DNA from: Candidatus Levyibacteriota bacterium
GTDB lineage: Bacteria > Patescibacteriota > Microgenomatia > Levybacterales > UBA12049
Direction of reading: 5' to 3'
NCBI GenBank assembly: GCA_038254115.1
Contig: JBBSGK010000002.1
Coordinates: forward strand, 5,589-69,588
DNA length: 64,000 nucleotides
Position 1 is the first letter of the stretch; each line of letters begins with the position of its first letter. This document shows, one piece after another, positions 4,353-54,943 of this stretch. A program made the position numbers and the translations under genes. The notes under the pieces are model-generated. The model was not told where the DNA came from, searched no databases, and was given only the letters and a program-made list of their open reading frames with translations.

Positions 4353-4841
4353 ATGAGAGAACAACATTTGAATTCAGGCGAGCAAGATTTATTTGATAAT
4401 TTGCATTTGGTAGAACTCGCAATTAAACATTTACCAAATCCAAAGGATAAATTTTCTTACGAAGAACAAGGTGATTATAACGACAGACTTGCTACCTTGC
4501 ATCTCGCAGGTTACATGATCGCAACTCGTGCAGGACGCCCACACCTGGCATCAACATATAAAGAAGATGCTCAATTAGAAAAACCTGATAGAGTAGGAGA
4601 GTTTGACAAGTTATCACCCGATGGGCAGCTGGAATTTTTGTTCATGAATGTCAGTGTTCACAGGACAGACTTCCAGCTCCCAACACTGCTTGCATCAATG
4701 ATTTCAGACCGCACTTTATCTAAAAACTGTCTTAGCAGGATACCCGCCATACCACATGAACCACAGAGACGACGTAACGGAATTACTAAACCAGGATTAT
4801 CACCAACATCATTTCCACCAAAGTACAAATATATTTTTTAG
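4353..4841 (+). CDS. Hypothetical protein (island gene 1), no recognisable domain
   Basis: 162-aa ORF, first gene of the GC-richer block. Upstream TTGTAA-N17-TACAAT promoter. Confidence 0.45.
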   Translation: MREQHLNSGEQDLFDNLHLVELAIKHLPNPKDKFSYEEQGDYNDRLATLHLAGYMIATRAGRPHLASTYKEDAQLEKPDRVGEFDKLSPDGQLEFLFMNVSVHRTDFQLPTLLASMISDRTLSKNCLSRIPAIPHEPQRRRNGITKPGLSPTSFPPKYKYIF

Positions 4842-26769: not shown

Positions 26770-27366
26770 ATGAGAAAAATTTTTGTGCTCGAATTTATTA
26801 CTATGGATGGCGTCATACAGGCACCTGGCGACTCCAAAGAAGATGCAGCCGAAGGCTTCAAATATGGTGGTTGGATGGGGCCATATTTTGGAAAAGATGA
26901 GATTGCGGGTCTGGAGATGGAGAAACAAATGAAGAAGACAGCTGGCCTGCTCCTCGGACGCAATACATATGACATCTTTGCGGGATTTTGGCCTAAAAAT
27001 ACCGAGTCTTGGCCACAAGTAAACAAAATCACTAAATATGTTGTCTCAAAAACCCTCCAAAAACCCACATGGGAAAATACTATCGTTATAAAAGACATTG
27101 AAGCATTAAAAAAACTCAAAGACTCGGACGGTCCAAACCTCCAAGTCTATGGAAGTGCAAATCTAATTCAGTCACTAATGGAGCAAGATTTGGTTGATGA
27201 ATTTTGGCTGAAAATATTTCCTGTTACTCTCGGGACAGGAAAACGGTTGTTTGACAAAGGCACTATCCCTGTATCTTTCAAGCTCTTCGACTCTAAAATT
27301 TCCCAAAATGGTATCATTTTTGCATACTACAAGCGTGCAGGAGATGTCAAAACGTCTGAAGTGTAG
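26770..27366 (+). CDS. Dihydrofolate-reductase-family protein (RibD C-terminal/YwjB-like reductase domain), paralog 1
   Basis: FITMDGVIQAPG, LLLGRNTYDIF, VYGSANLIQSLM, FPVTLGTGKRLF. 198 aa, typical size for the family. Confidence 0.7.
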   Translation: MRKIFVLEFITMDGVIQAPGDSKEDAAEGFKYGGWMGPYFGKDEIAGLEMEKQMKKTAGLLLGRNTYDIFAGFWPKNTESWPQVNKITKYVVSKTLQKPTWENTIVIKDIEALKKLKDSDGPNLQVYGSANLIQSLMEQDLVDEFWLKIFPVTLGTGKRLFDKGTIPVSFKLFDSKISQNGIIFAYYKRAGDVKTSEV

Positions 27367-27387: not shown

Positions 27388-27407
27388 CCTGCCTGCCGGC
27401 AGGCAGG
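27388..27407. repeat. Perfect 20-bp palindrome CCTGCCTGCCGGCAGGCAGG (copy A of dispersed palindromic element)
   Basis: Read directly. Identical 20-mer at 54716-54735. Imperfect copy at 32501-32519. Confidence 0.9.
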
Positions 27408-27482: not shown

Positions 27483-28094
27483 ATGAGGAAAATCATCACT
27501 ACTACATTTATAACTCTTGATGGCGTTATGCAAGCTCCTGGAGGACCGGATGAAGATACCTCAAACGGCTTCAAGTACGGAGGTTGGCAGCTTCTGGGCT
27601 GGAATCAAGAGGATGAAGTGGCAGACAAGATTCTGGACAGCTTTATGAAGACTCCTTTTGAGCTGCTCTTGGGAAAACGCACCTACGAAATCTTTGCAGC
27701 ATACTGGCCAAACGACAAAAAAGAGCCAAGTGTGGCAAATCCGTTCAACAGTACGAAGAAGCATGTGGTCGCACATAAACCTTTTAAACTTTCATGGAAC
27801 AATTCTGCGCTTATTACGGGAGACGTGATTTCGGAAATAAAAAAGCTTAAAGATTTAGACGGTCCCGACCTGTGGGTGTGGGGTAGCGGCAACCTCATAC
27901 AAACGCTTCTAAAACATAATCTGATAGATCAAATGCATATCTTGACATACCCCATTACTATTGGCAGCGGTAAAAAATTATTCGCCGAAGGAACTCGTCC
28001 TGAAAAATTCACTCCGGTAGACACAAAAATCACCTCAACAGGCGTAATATTTGCAACCTACGAACCCTCAGAACAACTCAAAATAGGATCTTAA
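27483..28094 (+). CDS. Dihydrofolate-reductase-family protein, paralog 2 (tandem duplicate)
   Basis: FITLDGVMQAPGGPDED, LLLGKRTYEIFAAYWP, VWGSGNLIQTLL. The upstream ~40 bp (TTCAATGAATTAACGGTnTnGTAGAATTGnTTAAATGAG) duplicates that of paralog 1. Confidence 0.7.
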   Translation: MRKIITTTFITLDGVMQAPGGPDEDTSNGFKYGGWQLLGWNQEDEVADKILDSFMKTPFELLLGKRTYEIFAAYWPNDKKEPSVANPFNSTKKHVVAHKPFKLSWNNSALITGDVISEIKKLKDLDGPDLWVWGSGNLIQTLLKHNLIDQMHILTYPITIGSGKKLFAEGTRPEKFTPVDTKITSTGVIFATYEPSEQLKIGS

Positions 28095-30876: not shown

Positions 30877-31485
30877 ATGACTACAAATATCTATCTAGTC
30901 CGTCATGGAGAGGTTCACAATCCAAAAAAAATCGTTTATGGACGATTGCCAGGATTCCGTCTTTCGACAAAGGGTGTTCTAGAGGTTGAACAAACAGCAA
31001 ATTTTTTGATAGACAAAAATATCAGCACGATATATTCCAGTCCTCTTCTAAGAGCTAGGCAAACAGCCAAAATAATTCAAAAAAAATTATATTTGCCAAA
31101 TGTTTTTTTAACAAAAGACTTATTAGAAGTTAAATCATCAGCTCAAGGAGAATTAAGTTCCAAGCTGGATCTTATTCATCACAATTATTACGCGGCGCCC
31201 GTTTGGCAAAAAAACGATGACACAATGCACAGTATCAGAGATCGAATGAGTAAAGTATTTAAAAGACTGGCAAATAAACACCATGGTCAATCAGTTGCCG
31301 TAGTATCCCACGGAGACCCGATTTTAATCCTGAAAGCATATATAAATAATTTGCCCATGGAACTCGCAACGATCAGAAAAGAAAAATATGAACTGGGTCA
31401 CGCCGAAATATTAAAAATAGAACAAATCGACAATAAATTACCTACCATAAAGAGCGTTTTTTGCCAAAAATATGAAACTTTATAA
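30877..31485 (+). CDS. Histidine phosphatase family protein (phosphoglycerate-mutase-like)
   Basis: IYLVRHGEVHN (RHG catalytic His), RARQTA, VSHGD. Confidence 0.75.
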   Translation: MTTNIYLVRHGEVHNPKKIVYGRLPGFRLSTKGVLEVEQTANFLIDKNISTIYSSPLLRARQTAKIIQKKLYLPNVFLTKDLLEVKSSAQGELSSKLDLIHHNYYAAPVWQKNDDTMHSIRDRMSKVFKRLANKHHGQSVAVVSHGDPILILKAYINNLPMELATIRKEKYELGHAEILKIEQIDNKLPTIKSVFCQKYETL

Positions 31486-32671
31486 TACTTTGTCCCGCAA
31501 ACTGGAAGAATTTACTCCAATTGATGGCAAAACTGTCAAAATGTATGTTTGTGGAATAACTCCCTATGACACCACGCATCTGGGGCATGCATTCACATAT
31601 ATTTTTTTTGATGCACTGCAGCGTTTTTTAAAGTACAAGGGATTTAGCGTGGAATATACCCAAAACGTCACAGATATTAATGACCGTGACAACGATATCC
31701 TCAAACGGGCACAAGAACAAAGCGTCACGTGGCAAAATCTTGCAAAGTTCTGGACAGATAAATTCCTCTCTGATATGGAAGAGCTGAATTGGATAAAACC
31801 TGACAATTATCTATTTGCCAGCGAAAAAATACCCGCAATGATTGATCTGATTGAAAAACTAATTAAGAACAAAAAAGCATATCAAGTAAATGGGGGAGTG
31901 TACCTGGATATTTCTAAGATCAATGATTTTGGTAAACTATCCCGATTGCCGCAGGAAAAAATGCTAAGTATTGCAAAAGAATTTGAAGAAGATCTGAGCA
32001 ATCCTGACAAGTATCATCCGCTTGATATAACATTGTGGAAACCAACAGCTAATAATCAGGCTGAACATGTTCCGTCATTCGAAAGTCCGTTCGGCCCGGG
32101 ACGCCCTGGTTGGCATATGGAATGCTCAGCAATGGCAATTAAATCTCTTGGCGAGCAGATAGATATTCATGGCGGAGGAGTGGACTTGATATATCCTCAT
32201 CACGAGTCTGAGATAGCCCAATCAGAGGGAGGGACTGGTAAAATCCCTTTCGCGAGGTTTTGGCTTCACAATCAGATTGTAAGCTTTAAAGGAAAAAAAA
32301 TGTCTAAATCTCTTGGAAATTTGGTGATGGTCTCTAATCTTTTGAAAAAATATTCACCAAATGCAATACGATATCTACTGCTTTCCCATCATTATAGAAA
32401 AGAGTGGGAATTTCATGAAGCGGAATTGGAAGAGGCGGAGAAAAAAATAAACGTGATTAAATCGGCGCTAGATGGTTATTCTTCGAACGGAGAGTTCGAT
32501 CTGCCTGCCGGCAGACAGGGAACAAACAATGAAACAATTAAGCAGTTTAATAATTTTTTGGATGATGACATGAACACTCCTAAGGCACTGGAAGTATTGG
32601 TAAAATCTGCTGAAAAAGGAAATTATGAGGAATTAAAGAAAATGTTATATATTTTAGGTTTTAAGTTTTAA
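31472..32671 (+). CDS. cysS: Cysteinyl-tRNA synthetase (compact form)
   Basis: HIGH-type motif TTHLGHA, KMSKS motif, C-terminal DDDMNTPKAL anticodon-binding helix. Carries an in-frame copy of the palindromic element (DLPAGRQG). Confidence 0.85.
   Translation: MKLYNTLSRKLEEFTPIDGKTVKMYVCGITPYDTTHLGHAFTYIFFDALQRFLKYKGFSVEYTQNVTDINDRDNDILKRAQEQSVTWQNLAKFWTDKFLSDMEELNWIKPDNYLFASEKIPAMIDLIEKLIKNKKAYQVNGGVYLDISKINDFGKLSRLPQEKMLSIAKEFEEDLSNPDKYHPLDITLWKPTANNQAEHVPSFESPFGPGRPGWHMECSAMAIKSLGEQIDIHGGGVDLIYPHHESEIAQSEGGTGKIPFARFWLHNQIVSFKGKKMSKSLGNLVMVSNLLKKYSPNAIRYLLLSHHYRKEWEFHEAELEEAEKKINVIKSALDGYSSNGEFDLPAGRQGTNNETIKQFNNFLDDDMNTPKALEVLVKSAEKGNYEELKKMLYILGFKF
32501..32519. repeat. Imperfect copy B of the palindromic element (CTGCCTGCCGGCAGACAGG) inside cysS coding sequence
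   Basis: Read directly. Core TCTGCCGGCAGA is perfectly palindromic. In frame, encoding LPAGRQ. Confidence 0.7.
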
Positions 32672-53099: not shown

Positions 53100-53764
53100 T
53101 CTAGCAGAAGATCTTATTTTTACAAGGTCAAAGTGAGTATCTCATTCAGTGCACCAGAAGCGATGACTCTTGAACTCCTGACTGACGCCATCTTAACACA
53201 CTGGGAACCGCTTGAACTGAATCTAAAAAGATCAGTCTTAACGATTTGTGGGCTACACAAGCGCAAGATGATAAGGGACACTCCTATTTGTATTGATAAG
53301 ATCTGATACATTTAACAATTGCCTTAGCATAATAGAAATTCGGCGCATAATACACATTTTGAAATGTTGAAACTCGCACTTACCTAGCAGAATTAGAATC
53401 TTCACCATATTGATCGAGAAGATGCTGGTTGCAATTAAAATTTGACAAAACAACTCATAGTATGATACTATCCCAAACCTATGGCAATGGAAAGATGGGA
53501 ATTAATCCAAAGACAAACAGGAAATGTCGCAGGAGCAGAAATGGCTCGCACTCTCCGTGAGCAATTTGGTGATATCCCCTTTCCCATTAGAGAAAGAGCC
53601 CTATAGAGATTAAAAGATTTGCTCCTGAGGCAAGAGAAGCTCTAGAAAGTCAGGGATTTGTAGTATATGGCTTAACAGGGCAATCAATAGCAACCCTTAG
53701 AGCATGTGGTGGACCATTTTGGTCAGCCTGGCACAACGGATTTGATTTTGAAACACACAGCTCA

Positions 53765-54154
53765 ATGCAATCAGAAGTCGCAATAAACCCAAGTAAGCTG
53801 TATTTAACAAGAAGTAATGGTAAAGATCTCTCCCAACAGGAAGCAATGGTAGGTAAGTATTCTGAAAAACTTGGCAAAACAATTAAAGGAGTTAAAGCGG
53901 TTATTGGTGAAGCGCCTGATTATGTAGAACTAGCATTTGCCCACCTAGACGCCACAAGAGGAAATGGACAACCGGATTACTTATTTGGCGAAAAATATGG
54001 TTCTAACTATGCAAGGACAAAAACCAAAACGGGTGGCTCTAGTGTCGCTTGTGTTGGTACCTTTCACCCCGCTAGTGGTTTGAATGTCTTCCGCTGGAAT
54101 GCCGGTGATGGTTATGACGTTGTTCATGTCGCTCCACTGGTAGTGCCTGCTTAA
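53765..54154 (+). CDS. Hypothetical protein; probably the 3' part of a frameshifted gene starting at 53481
   Basis: The ORF is open from 53591 in this frame. An upstream 41-codon ORF (53481-53606, MAMERWELIQRQTG...) in another frame overlaps it and has a good TTGACA-N16-TATGAT promoter. The 53765 ATG lacks a promoter or RBS of its own. Confidence 0.35.
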   Translation: MQSEVAINPSKLYLTRSNGKDLSQQEAMVGKYSEKLGKTIKGVKAVIGEAPDYVELAFAHLDATRGNGQPDYLFGEKYGSNYARTKTKTGGSSVACVGTFHPASGLNVFRWNAGDGYDVVHVAPLVVPA

Positions 54155-54363
54155 GATTTGGCATTTGTCCTCTTGGTAATCTTATCAATTAGTAAAAGCA
54201 ATTTCTGCTAGAGTAGTTGGGGTTAATGTCGTACAAAACTTATTAGCACTTTGTCCTAATGGTTACAAAATGTTAGAATTTGTAGCGATGATAATCCTTA
54301 CTTATAAAAAGATTTAAATTTATGGACAAATAGCTAATTATATTGATTTAACAACCTAATTAG

Positions 54364-54446
54364 TGCGGACGAGAGGAGTTGAACCTCCACACCCTTTCGG
54401 GCACTACCACCTCAAGGTAGCGTGTATACCATTTCACCACGTCCGC
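54364..54446 (-). tRNA. tRNA-Leu (anticodon GAG), long variable arm
   Basis: Reverse complement GCGGACGTGGTGAAATGGTATACACGCTACCTTGAGGTGGTAGTGCCCGAAAGGGTGTGGAGGTTCAACTCCTCTCGTCCGCA. Anticodon loop TTGAGGT. Confidence 0.8.
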
Positions 54447-54686
54447 TTATTGAATTTCTGCAATTTCCTTAATTATTTCTCTTCCGTAACCCGACTTAAA
54501 AAATAATTCTAATTTCCTAGCATCACCTCTGGTTGAACAAATTTCTACGTGAATTAATTCCGCAGGTAACATATGTCTCGTTGCGCTCATTTTACCCGAA
54601 AAGTGTTCAATCAATCTTTTGTCTAATGTTACCAGTTTGTCCTTTATAAAATTTATTATTCTTAATGCTTTTGAGAATATAAACAT
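54447..54686 (-). CDS. Small GIY-YIG-superfamily nuclease (COG2827/UPF0213-like)
   Basis: 79 aa. LDKRLIEHFSGK...ARKLELFFKSGYGREIIKEI aligns with the conserved RRLxEHNSG...ARxxExFLKSGxGRxF core of the family. The N-terminal GIY-YIG strands are degenerate. Confidence 0.55.
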   Translation of the reverse strand: MFIFSKALRIINFIKDKLVTLDKRLIEHFSGKMSATRHMLPAELIHVEICSTRGDARKLELFFKSGYGREIIKEIAEIQ

Positions 54687-54715
54687 AAAACATGTATTCG
54701 GTTAGCTTGTATACC

Positions 54716-54735
54716 CCTGCCTGCCGGCAGGCAGG
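54716..54735. repeat. Perfect 20-bp palindrome CCTGCCTGCCGGCAGGCAGG (copy C), 30 bp upstream of the GIY-YIG gene
   Basis: Read directly. Identical to 27388-27407. Confidence 0.9.
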
Positions 54736-54751
54736 ATTTCACCACGTCCGC
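54736..54751. repeat. 16-bp direct repeat ATTTCACCACGTCCGC duplicating the 5' end of the tRNA-Leu(GAG) gene (54431-54446)
   Basis: Identical 16-mers at 54431-54446 and 54736-54751 bracket the GIY-YIG gene and the palindrome. Confidence 0.85.
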
Positions 54752-54769
54752 AGTCCTATTGTTTACTTG

Positions 54770-54852
54770 TGCCCAGGAGAGGAGTTGAACCTCCACGCCC
54801 TTGCGAGCACTGGCACCTGAAGCCAGCGTGTATACCATTTCACCACCTGGGC
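54770..54852 (-). tRNA. tRNA-Leu (anticodon CAG), long variable arm
   Basis: Reverse complement GCCCAGGTGGTGAAATGGTATACACGCTGGCTTCAGGTGCCAGTGCTCGCAAGGGCGTGGAGGTTCAACTCCTCTCCTGGGCA. Confidence 0.8.
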
Positions 54853-54943
54853 AAAGATTTCTTGACAAGCGCCAATCGTAATTTTATCAGATGAGGATGG
54901 ACTTGACAACGGAGCTAAATTTTGCAAATATAAGAAAGCCCAC

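Follow-up and report, generated by a model that had tools for sequence, protein, structure and literature searches.

The 64,000-nt stretch of Candidatus Levyibacteriota contig JBBSGK010000002.1 analysed here (the window) carries on its minus strand a small GIY-YIG nuclease gene wedged against a tRNA-Leu(GAG) gene. Together they form a cassette with three kinds of part: an approximately 80-amino-acid (aa) domain-only GIY-YIG gene, a GC-rich 20-bp palindrome, and tRNA sequence on both sides. Our analysis indicates that the locus is probably one copy, now decaying, of a selfish GIY-YIG cassette of homing type with a specialisation for tRNA genes. An earlier reading of the same DNA, made without database searches (the original prediction), had placed both tRNAs, the open reading frame (ORF), the palindrome and a 16-bp repeat correctly, as ARAGORN, Rfam and the sequence itself agree (Table 1).

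Read along the minus strand, the locus runs GCGGACGTGGTGAAAT-palindrome-GGTATACAAGCTAAC-CGAATAC-ATG, and the intact tRNA runs GCGGACGTGGTGAAAT-GGTATACACGCTACC…. The 16-mer ATTTCACCACGTCCGC is exact at 54431-54446 and 54736-54751; two paralogous Leu tRNAs differ from it by one and three mismatches, and ordinary paralogue similarity therefore does not explain it. The 16-bp repeat of the tRNA 5′ end is thus real, but the true copy is about 31 nt long (29/31 identical) and is interrupted by the palindrome: tRNA homology resumes past it, where GGTATACAaGCTAaC (54715-54701) matches nt 17-31 at 13 of 15 positions. The palindrome had been seen at the right position, adjoining the repeat, but it sits inside the tRNA copy, between nt 16 and 17, as a precise 20-nt insertion in the D-loop. 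Fragment homology stops near the anticodon loop, and 7 nt (54694-54700) lead from there to the ATG. At the other end of the gene the TAA stop abuts nt 1 of tRNA-Leu(GAG) with zero spacer. The described location between two tRNA-Leu genes holds, but the adjacency of tRNA-Leu(CAG) is incidental, the cassette being built on tRNA-Leu(GAG) alone.

Scanning the window for further GIY-YIG genes gave none besides 54447-54693, and Rfam at a permissive threshold returned the two tRNAs and sub-threshold noise, with no ribozyme or other family. We rejected intron, ribozyme and known small-RNA readings on the grounds that Rfam gave the tRNAs only. Pfam had no match for the 129-aa and 191-aa ORFs downstream of the tRNA. 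One promoter-like site upstream of tRNA-Leu(CAG) is the sole good promoter candidate for the run of tRNA-Leu(CAG), fragment, ORF and tRNA-Leu(GAG); no comparable site lies between tRNA-Leu(CAG) and the ORF, and no terminator-like site was found. On this layout transcription of tRNA-Leu(GAG) probably passes through the whole cassette, with RNase P releasing the tRNA, and read-through from that promoter, across fragment and ORF, would be the tRNA's sole source.

Table 1 Features of the cassette locus and solo palindromes in the window
Feature	Coordinates	Strand	Remarks
tRNA-Leu(GAG)	54363/4-54446	minus	ARAGORN and Rfam agree, 54.1 bits; intact, begins one base past ORF stop
tRNA-Leu(CAG)	54769/70-54852	minus	ARAGORN and Rfam agree, 54.1 bits; upstream neighbour, outside cassette
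ORF of 79 codons (as called)	54447-54686	minus	
GIY-YIG gene, predicted pseudogene here	54447..54693	minus	ATG 54693-54691, TAA 54449-54447
5′ tRNA fragment, part 1	54736..54751	minus	exact copy of tRNA-Leu(GAG) nt 1-16 (GCGGACGTGGTGAAAT)
Palindrome, perfect, 20 bp, CCTGCCTGCCGGCAGGCAGG	54716..54735		between nt 16 and 17 of tRNA fragment, D-loop; no strand
5′ tRNA fragment, part 2, GGTATACAAGCTAAC	54701..54715	minus	13/15 against tRNA-Leu(GAG) nt 17-31
Promoter-like site TTGTCA-17-TAAAAT with TG	54881..54909	minus	upstream of tRNA-Leu(CAG); 10/12 consensus matches
Palindrome, solo, 2 mismatches	32500..32519		in frame within cysS; no strand
Palindrome, solo, exact	27388..27407		spacer of two RibD_C-like paralogues; no strand

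The GIY-YIG gene and its protein

As called, the ORF passes the Pfam GIY-YIG hidden Markov model check proposed with the original prediction narrowly, at 24.6 bits against a cutoff of 22.6, and covers profile positions 22-73 only. The N-terminus had been described as degenerate; in fact the canonical motif is intact, MFYVYILKSIKNNKFYKGQTGN (MFYVYILKS…FYKGQT), read from the ATG at 54693 in another frame than the called ORF, and its 28 residues alone score 22.2 bits over profile positions 1-27. In tblastn the gene splits into two high-scoring segment pairs in different frames. Comparison with relatives places the lesion at a single extra A, AAC[A]TTAGAC, near 54627, a +1 frameshift that displaces the motif and bears out the suspicion of a decaying gene. 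Repairing it yields an 81-aa protein that scores 52.9 bits (E 4.5e-14) over profile positions 1-73 (PF01541). In a family alignment of 66 sequences Y5, Y16, G18 and E62 are invariant, and T20, R26 and H30 are at least 90% conserved; the repaired window protein keeps all conserved motif residues. In the sequenced DNA the frame that encodes Y5, Y16 and G18 is not that of the remaining residues, and the window copy is predicted to be an inactive pseudogene that would be immobile unless complemented in trans. The frameshift is either recent or an assembly error.

By profile comparison the protein is a domain-only GIY-YIG of UPF0213/SLX1 type. The closest solved structures found with the family profile are 1ywl (1e-11), 1zg2 (1.5e-10) and SLX1 (3e-5), and homologues measure 79-100 aa after trimming of overcalled ends. 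Comparing the window gene with its counterparts in two syntenic relatives, L001 and L067, gave ratios of nonsynonymous to synonymous substitution rates (dN/dS) of 0.07-0.11, with synonymous sites saturated. These values point to an old nuclease lineage under purifying selection and kept functional, of which only the window copy appears broken. Searches of PADLOC, PHROGs and NCBIfam returned motif-level matches only, with no significant match to a defence model, and we rejected assignment to a defence system or a named homing-endonuclease family because these matches are weak and confined to the motif region. An exact look-up of the 79-aa ORF product returned no record.

Filled and empty sites among syntenic relatives

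Four syntenic relatives (L001, L065, L066 and L067), found via the neighbouring 188-aa protein, share the order trigger factor, tRNA-Leu(TAG), 188-aa gene, tRNA-Leu(CAG), tRNA-Leu(GAG). The comparison of related genomes that the original prediction proposed did reveal empty sites: L065 and L066 have both tRNAs, CAG and GAG, but no ORF, palindrome or fragment. L001 and L067 are filled and hold an intact 80-aa GIY-YIG gene, its product 71% and 77.5% identical to the repaired window protein, with the palindrome at the same D-loop position and a fragment matching their own tRNA. The L001 fragment reproduces nt 1-34 of its tRNA (34/34), including a C-to-T difference from the window; in L067 homology reaches approximately nt 29. 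L066 and L001 also share a spacer gene and a flank, …TTATTTTTTG…AAAAAAT followed by GCGGATG, which stands before the intact tRNA in L066 and before the fragment in L001. It follows that the tRNA originally stood where the fragment now is, and that all DNA from the palindrome onwards, as far as the intact tRNA, has been added.

The cassette is thus an insertion when set against an ancestral single tRNA: it has a second copy of the tRNA 5′ part, non-functional and holding the palindrome, and an intact tRNA directly after the ORF. With about 31 nt left at the native position and a complete tRNA behind the ORF, the tRNA gene was invaded, not lost. Empty and filled sites, and the native flank kept in L001, uphold the proposal of a small mobile or homing insertion that regenerated its target, on the 5′ side of the tRNA as had been said, since the repeat covers the tRNA 5′ part. 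An arrangement common to all relatives, with the 16-mer explained by ordinary tRNA-Leu similarity, would have spoken against such an insertion; instead, two relatives are empty and the paralogues mismatch.

Presence of the cassette disagrees with the host tree of trigger factor (tig), and two precise losses or several gains are needed: by trigger-factor identity, the partner of the window is L065 (82%) and that of L001 is L066 (77%), both partners being empty. The variable arm of tRNA-Leu(GAG) reads GCCYGAAAGGG in all three filled loci (GCCCGAAAGGG in the window) and GCTCGCAAGGG in both empty ones. To judge by these sequences the tRNA variant seems to travel with the cassette and not with the host, over three positions only and with conversion by the CAG paralogue as an alternative, and this tracking offers an indirect hint of homing-type gene conversion.

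All four relatives, the empty ones included, have a large serine recombinase gene adjoining or overlapping tRNA-Leu(GAG) at its 3′ end (L001 5311-6843, L065 653-2160, L066 682-2349, L067 790-2331); the window lacks it, and its region 53100-54360 holds just short ORFs without annotatable content. These recombinases, abutting the very same tRNA, could suggest that the cassette is a remnant of an integrase-mediated island or prophage with a tRNA attachment site. The idea is hardly credible: the recombinase accompanies empty loci too and stands at the opposite (3′) end of the tRNA, the inserted DNA amounts to just approximately 300 bp, the repeat is the 5′ part of the tRNA, and no recombinase attachment (att) site coinciding with the fragment boundaries was seen. 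Nor is there an integrase or recombinase in the window at 47-54.4 kb, as the original prediction had said. Like tRNA-targeting integrase islands and prophages, the cassette enters a tRNA gene, restores it by a carried part and leaves a partial repeat; unlike it, those elements use an integrase, usually duplicate the 3′ part and span kilobases. We found neither a tyrosine or serine recombinase gene in the element nor a 3′-part repeat.

Several further features of these loci are patchy. A gene for a PF05635 (23S_rRNA_IVP, four-helix-bundle) protein lies between tRNA-Leu(CAG) and tRNA-Leu(GAG) in L001 (4533-4889) and L066 (2476-2835), is seemingly decayed in L065 (about 2250-2750) and is absent from the window and L067, making it a second small patchy ORF of the same spacer. 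The tRNA-Leu(CAG) of L065 (2752-2836, GCCGAAGTGGCGGAATTGGTAGAC…) is of another sequence type than the CAG tRNA of the remaining four syntenic genomes, which hints at tRNA gene replacement there. L067 has an N-terminal GIY-YIG fragment, a cassette relic, between tRNA-Leu(TAG) and tig (4527-4607). The only other assembly of this strain (L064, Logan SRR24807095), made independently, stops 162 nt short of the 188-aa gene, at the tRNA/palindrome region, which suggests that the repeats here break short-read assemblies.

Recurrence beside tRNA genes in Patescibacteria

Homologues were retrieved by peptide pattern alone, with no DNA information, giving 62 loci from species-representative genomes and 80 from metagenomes. 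Counts below refer to 132 distinct proteins for which 100 nt or more of upstream sequence was available, except that fragments were counted at 120 loci that were not dereplicated. The hosts are nearly all Patescibacteria-type metagenome-assembled genomes (MAGs) from Microgenomates lineages, Saccharimonadales and Parcubacteria, many of them mislabelled in their records. A co-oriented tRNA lies immediately downstream of 103 of the 132 homologues and abuts upstream instead in 7; the 20-mer, with at most 3 mismatches, occurs within 120 nt upstream of the start in 87 (79 exact). A search for further GIY-YIG genes with partial tRNA repeats, also proposed with the original prediction, therefore finds the arrangement, palindrome included, at many other tRNA genes, and the cassette recurs beside tRNA genes in more than 100 ultra-small (Patescibacteria-type) genomes.

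The internal order is equally regular. A 5′ fragment starting at nt 1-3 of the locus's own downstream tRNA is present at 86 of the 120 loci, and a GC-rich hairpin is inserted in that fragment at 79 of these 86. Most loci have a single palindrome, placed mostly after tRNA nt 22/23 or 16/17, in the D-loop, where the commonest context is GG(C/T)A(G/T)A before and C(G/A)CG after it; its distance from the ATG is 7-26 nt, with a peak at 16. Fragments end anywhere from nt 21 to nt 44, and at some loci (L027, L040) the duplication also takes in 14-18 nt upstream of the tRNA. The tRNAs hit are mainly those for Leu, with all five isoacceptors, and further those for Cys, Arg, Lys, Thr, His, Asn, Pro and Ser; no fewer than 10 amino-acid classes are represented overall. 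A distant clade (42-48% identity) at tRNA-Gln has a double hairpin of its own, GTCGCCTCNTCGGCGAC-CCGCCGANGAGGCGGG, in the corresponding part of the D-loop. In a rough neighbour-joining tree of the ~80-aa proteins, which has low resolution, the Leu isoacceptors are intermixed, and this suggests repeated moves between tRNA genes. Like the window copy, some other family members are frameshifted or truncated.

Side observations extend the association. Loci with two GIY matches, among them L027, L032, L168 and L169, have divergent mini-ORFs (29-48% against the Leu-associated ones) by other tRNAs of the cluster, for example directly after tRNA-Gly; the tRNA association probably extends to further GIY-YIG subfamilies. 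Many database ORFs are called too long, running at the N-terminus into the palindrome (…PACRQAG…, …CLPAGR…) or at the C-terminus into the tRNA (…VAKLADA…, …AEVVEW).

These counts bear on the idea that the fragment is a decayed third tRNA-Leu from an old tandem duplication, beside which the GIY-YIG gene and palindrome arrived independently. tRNA-Leu genes are indeed clustered here, tandem tRNA paralogues are common, and GC hairpins accumulate in dead tRNA remnants, as in L039, where one remnant has three different GC hairpins upstream of the GIY ORF. We nevertheless regard independent arrival as very improbable. At the site each empty relative has a single tRNA, preceded by the fragment's own upstream flank; the order fragment, hairpin, ORF and tRNA recurs across many tRNA species, each fragment matching its own downstream tRNA; and the duplication at L027 and L040 includes upstream sequence. 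The cassette may also be compared with the group I intron in the anticodon loop of bacterial tRNA-Leu(UAA), some copies of which hold homing endonuclease ORFs: both are mobile insertions in a tRNA-Leu gene, and the L001 fragment breaks off behind position 34 of the anticodon, where such introns classically sit. Unlike such an intron, the cassette has no ribozyme (no intron family at E <= 1 in Rfam), its downstream piece is a whole tRNA and not a 3′ exon, and its fragment ends vary.

The stop codon falls inside the downstream tRNA at 40 of the 103 tRNA-linked loci, and there RNase P processing would compete with translation of the nuclease. Such coupling would look regulatory, and it is one argument for a module domesticated by the host, in which a nuclease co-expressed with the tRNA serves DNA repair, defence or tRNA-gene maintenance and fragment plus hairpin form a regulatory or processing leader. 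Strong purifying selection, nuclease divergence resembling that of host proteins, a gene tightly packed and probably co-transcribed with its tRNA, and the stable 9-bp hairpin into which the palindrome folds in the leader would all suit a useful module. The cassette is, however, patchy among close relatives and at odds with the host tree, uses many different tRNA species, leaves frameshifted or truncated copies, decaying 3′ tRNA remnants and ORF-less relics, matches no defence model significantly and, in its mirror arrangement, has the hairpin after the ORF; on balance we think domestication improbable. We likewise downgraded a translation-controlling leader hairpin, as in T4 endonuclease genes: mirror loci have the palindrome after the ORF, and there is no obvious sequestered ribosome-binding site.

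Fuller forms of the cassette retain both halves of a split tRNA. At L035/L179 the order is nt 1-22, palindrome, nt 23-44, ORF, an intact and different tRNA-Leu(TAG), nt 12-22, palindrome, and nt 23 to the end. The outer pieces, when joined, give a valid tRNA-Leu(TAG) with a sequence unlike that of the intact tRNA beside the ORF; a resident tRNA was therefore split by the ORF plus a replacement tRNA. An approximately 53-nt direct repeat that includes the palindrome flanks ORF and tRNA at both of these loci. At L002, L017, L109, L115, L118 and L130 there are 3′ remnants with an acceptor strand that complements the 5′ fragment; each bears the palindrome, at varying places and often in the T-arm. 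Mirror forms (L018, L026, L037, L106) consist of an intact tRNA, the ORF and a palindrome-bearing 3′ remnant, and an ORF-less relic on the minus strand of L017, around 951, comprises a tRNA fragment and palindrome upstream of tRNA-Leu(TAG). The window and its close relatives have the 5′ fragment only, with no 3′ remnant. Such simpler states could derive from the full form via recombination of the intact tRNA with a remnant.

The palindrome also occurs by itself. Shuffled sequence gave 0.00 expected chance matches to CCTGCCTGCCGGCAGGCAGG, and the window holds three copies, one with 2 mismatches. Within cysS (31472-32671, cysteinyl-tRNA synthetase) the mismatched copy is translated as …DLPAGRQG… and has the look of a palindrome that entered an essential gene in frame; the exact solo copy lies in a short spacer between RibD_C-like genes at 26770-27366 and 27483-28094. 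In the tig gene of L001 (1871-2722) the palindrome at 2281-2300 forms a 21-nt in-frame insertion that adds about LPAGRQG. The window tig is without it, and L065, L066 and L067 lack a palindrome in or near tig; with the insertion in L001 only, the palindrome is therefore polymorphic by itself. Solo palindromes outside tRNA remnants number about 9 across the examined loci, plus the 2 in the window; most copies lie in tRNA remnants beside the nuclease gene. No intact tRNA interrupted by the palindrome alone was found among GIY-associated loci, where full-tRNA calls after palindrome removal fall on 3′ or near-complete remnants. The sole clear case is a tRNA-Met of a GC-rich viral contig (L092, 2239-2310), which has the 20-mer in its variable loop and is still called as a tRNA.

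The exact 20-mer is found in IMG/VR in 35 viral-contig stretches (L068-L102), nearly all GC-rich, of which L099 is the only one with the canonical palindrome-ORF arrangement; most stretches have 54-68% GC, and the nuclease gene is missing from every one of these. The 20-mer alone is thus not diagnostic of the cassette. We dropped the idea of a phage vector, the nuclease gene being nearly always missing from these contigs, which give it no support. Other variation includes a tandemly duplicated fragment-plus-palindrome unit upstream of the GIY ORF at L045 and diverged hairpins at L012 where its close relatives L011 and L014 have the 20-mer. Palindrome variants at L006/L015 show paired changes at positions 5 and 12 that fit a register-shifted 6-bp hairpin (three loci).

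Solo copies and ~53-nt repeats raise the alternative that the same element moves by way of its palindrome. Here the palindrome would be the nuclease's cis site, recognised by a homodimer or cut SLX1-like as a cruciform or hairpin; a small circle would integrate at a palindrome-bearing tRNA remnant, or a palindrome-flanked segment would be cut and pasted, and solo palindromes would be landing pads or footprints. The analogy is to REP/RAYT, in which the presumed mover of the palindromes, a Y1 (HUH) transposase, is encoded between them. REP/RAYT, Rickettsia palindromic elements (RPEs), yeast and fungal mitochondrial GC clusters and double-hairpin elements are short GC-rich dispersed palindromes, sometimes in frame in protein genes, as the cassette palindrome is in cysS and tig. 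RPEs and GC clusters have no assigned enzyme, and none of REP/RAYT, RPEs and GC clusters is tied to split tRNA genes. The L035/L179 repeat, made up of a D-loop bit, the palindrome and an anticodon arm, is the expected crossover product of circle and target. Palindromes in 5′ and 3′ remnants alike, the separate double hairpin of the tRNA-Gln clade at the same D-loop place, the structure-specific nuclease SLX1 among the closest solved relatives, polymorphic in-frame solo copies, and a palindrome mostly upstream of the ORF but downstream in mirror forms, which favours a role in DNA over one in an mRNA leader, point the same way.

Against a palindrome-driven route, a break at the element's own palindrome would lead to its loss by gene conversion, not its spread, and cleavable sites scattered over a genome would endanger it. 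The majority of loci have just one palindrome, GIY-associated loci offer no intact tRNA interrupted by the palindrome only, a clade-specific hairpin is expected from plain linkage with no need for co-evolution, and GC-rich viral contigs have the 20-mer without the gene. The REP/RAYT pattern itself does not fit, with a GIY-YIG enzyme in place of Y1, usually one flanking palindrome and sparse solo copies. Movement centred on the palindrome explains the ~53-nt repeats and solo copies better than homing does, and net spread worse; we rate it as unlikely.

A proposed homing-type model for the cassette

The preferred reading, a homing-type cassette specialised on tRNA genes, has its nearest known parallel, by analogy, in SegB of phage T4. 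Encoded in a tRNA cluster, this free-standing GIY-YIG homing endonuclease cuts inside tRNA genes of genomes without it and is inherited by break repair with co-conversion; SegB-like genes are often co-localised with tRNAs across phages, and SegB drives tandem tRNA+segB duplications via microhomology with the tRNA 5′ end (PMC2988022, PMC13096335). The cassette nuclease gene is likewise wedged between tRNA genes, and shows the presence/absence polymorphism at one site among related genomes that marks a free-standing homing gene. Unlike phage SegB, it resides in bacterial chromosomes and combines a conserved palindrome with a standing partial-tRNA duplication, neither of which is described for SegB. 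Sequence similarity to SegB-like proteins is confined to the GIY-YIG motif region, with weak PHROG and NCBIfam matches. Its sequence relationship is instead to UPF0213/COG2827 proteins (YhbQ, EF2693, BH0048), which are domain-only and 80-100 aa long. To our knowledge, UPF0213/SLX1 URI-type proteins have no reported link to tRNA genes, palindromes or mobility, and our literature search on COG2827/UPF0213 found none. In eukaryotes SLX1 acts with SLX4 on branched DNA.

Homing would be the simplest explanation of spread. By analogy with such systems, the nuclease would cut a tRNA gene that is still uninterrupted, within the D-arm or close to it. Repair would then proceed from a filled copy, with tRNA nt 1 to ~22 as left arm and the intact tRNA as right arm, both short and universally conserved homology, and repair would copy the palindrome and ORF (and possibly the tRNA) into the target. 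Interruption of the duplicate by the palindrome may destroy the remnant's target site, curb repeat-mediated excision, or both. Recombination between the direct repeats could restore a scar-free tRNA and an empty site. The intact tRNA-Leu(GAG) would then be the functional copy restored or delivered by the cassette.

Several points weigh against this account. Nuclease activity, cleavage site and transfer are all inferred. The protein has ~80 aa, of which residues 1-70 are covered by the Pfam match, and no extra DNA-binding domain; it is a catalytic core without the DNA-binding extension of characterised GIY-YIG homing endonucleases. SegB has ~220 aa and a C-terminal DNA-binding region. The intact tRNA beside the ORF keeps an uninterrupted D-arm, so that a simple model of D-arm target and palindrome immunity leaves self-protection unexplained. 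Solo palindromes in protein genes need a mechanism beyond homing, and GC-rich viral contigs carry the exact 20-mer without a nuclease gene. Copies within one tRNA cluster are just 29-48% identical, with no sign of recent within-genome copy-and-paste. Identity of the nuclease among the three filled relatives (71-80%) is about that of host proteins (69-79%); such similar divergence and the low dN/dS would also suit a cassette inherited vertically for long, lost precisely on two occasions and possibly of use to the host. The frameshift, finally, may be an assembly error in a single MAG.

More tentatively, the cassette may represent a distinct class of mobile element, a 'tRNA-splitting' GIY-YIG element. 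Such an element would pair a domain-only nuclease with a cognate 20-bp palindrome (a double hairpin in the tRNA-Gln clade), enter at the D-loop and supply or regenerate a replacement tRNA; tRNA halves would serve as portable homology arms or att sites across species, and the palindrome would proliferate in trans as 20-21-nt insertions, including in-frame ones in essential genes. We consider this broader proposal possible rather than likely. Searches of open-access papers on GIY-YIG with CPR/Patescibacteria, palindrome, D-loop, COG2827/UPF0213 and the 20-mer gave no description of the cassette, which leaves room for an earlier description elsewhere; it is apparently undescribed.

Recognition of the cassette explains a recurrent annotation artefact, in which ORFs are overcalled into palindrome or tRNA and partial tRNA copies are easily misread. 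The 80-aa nuclease and its adjoining invariant 20-mer are a concrete protein/DNA pair with which to study target recognition by a domain-only GIY-YIG enzyme. Even highly streamlined Patescibacteria genomes would, on our preferred reading, carry a persistent selfish nuclease family, one that invades essential single-copy tRNA genes by duplicating or replacing them. With a tRNA variant that appears to follow the cassette and not the host tree, such invasion may offer a route for horizontal tRNA gene replacement.

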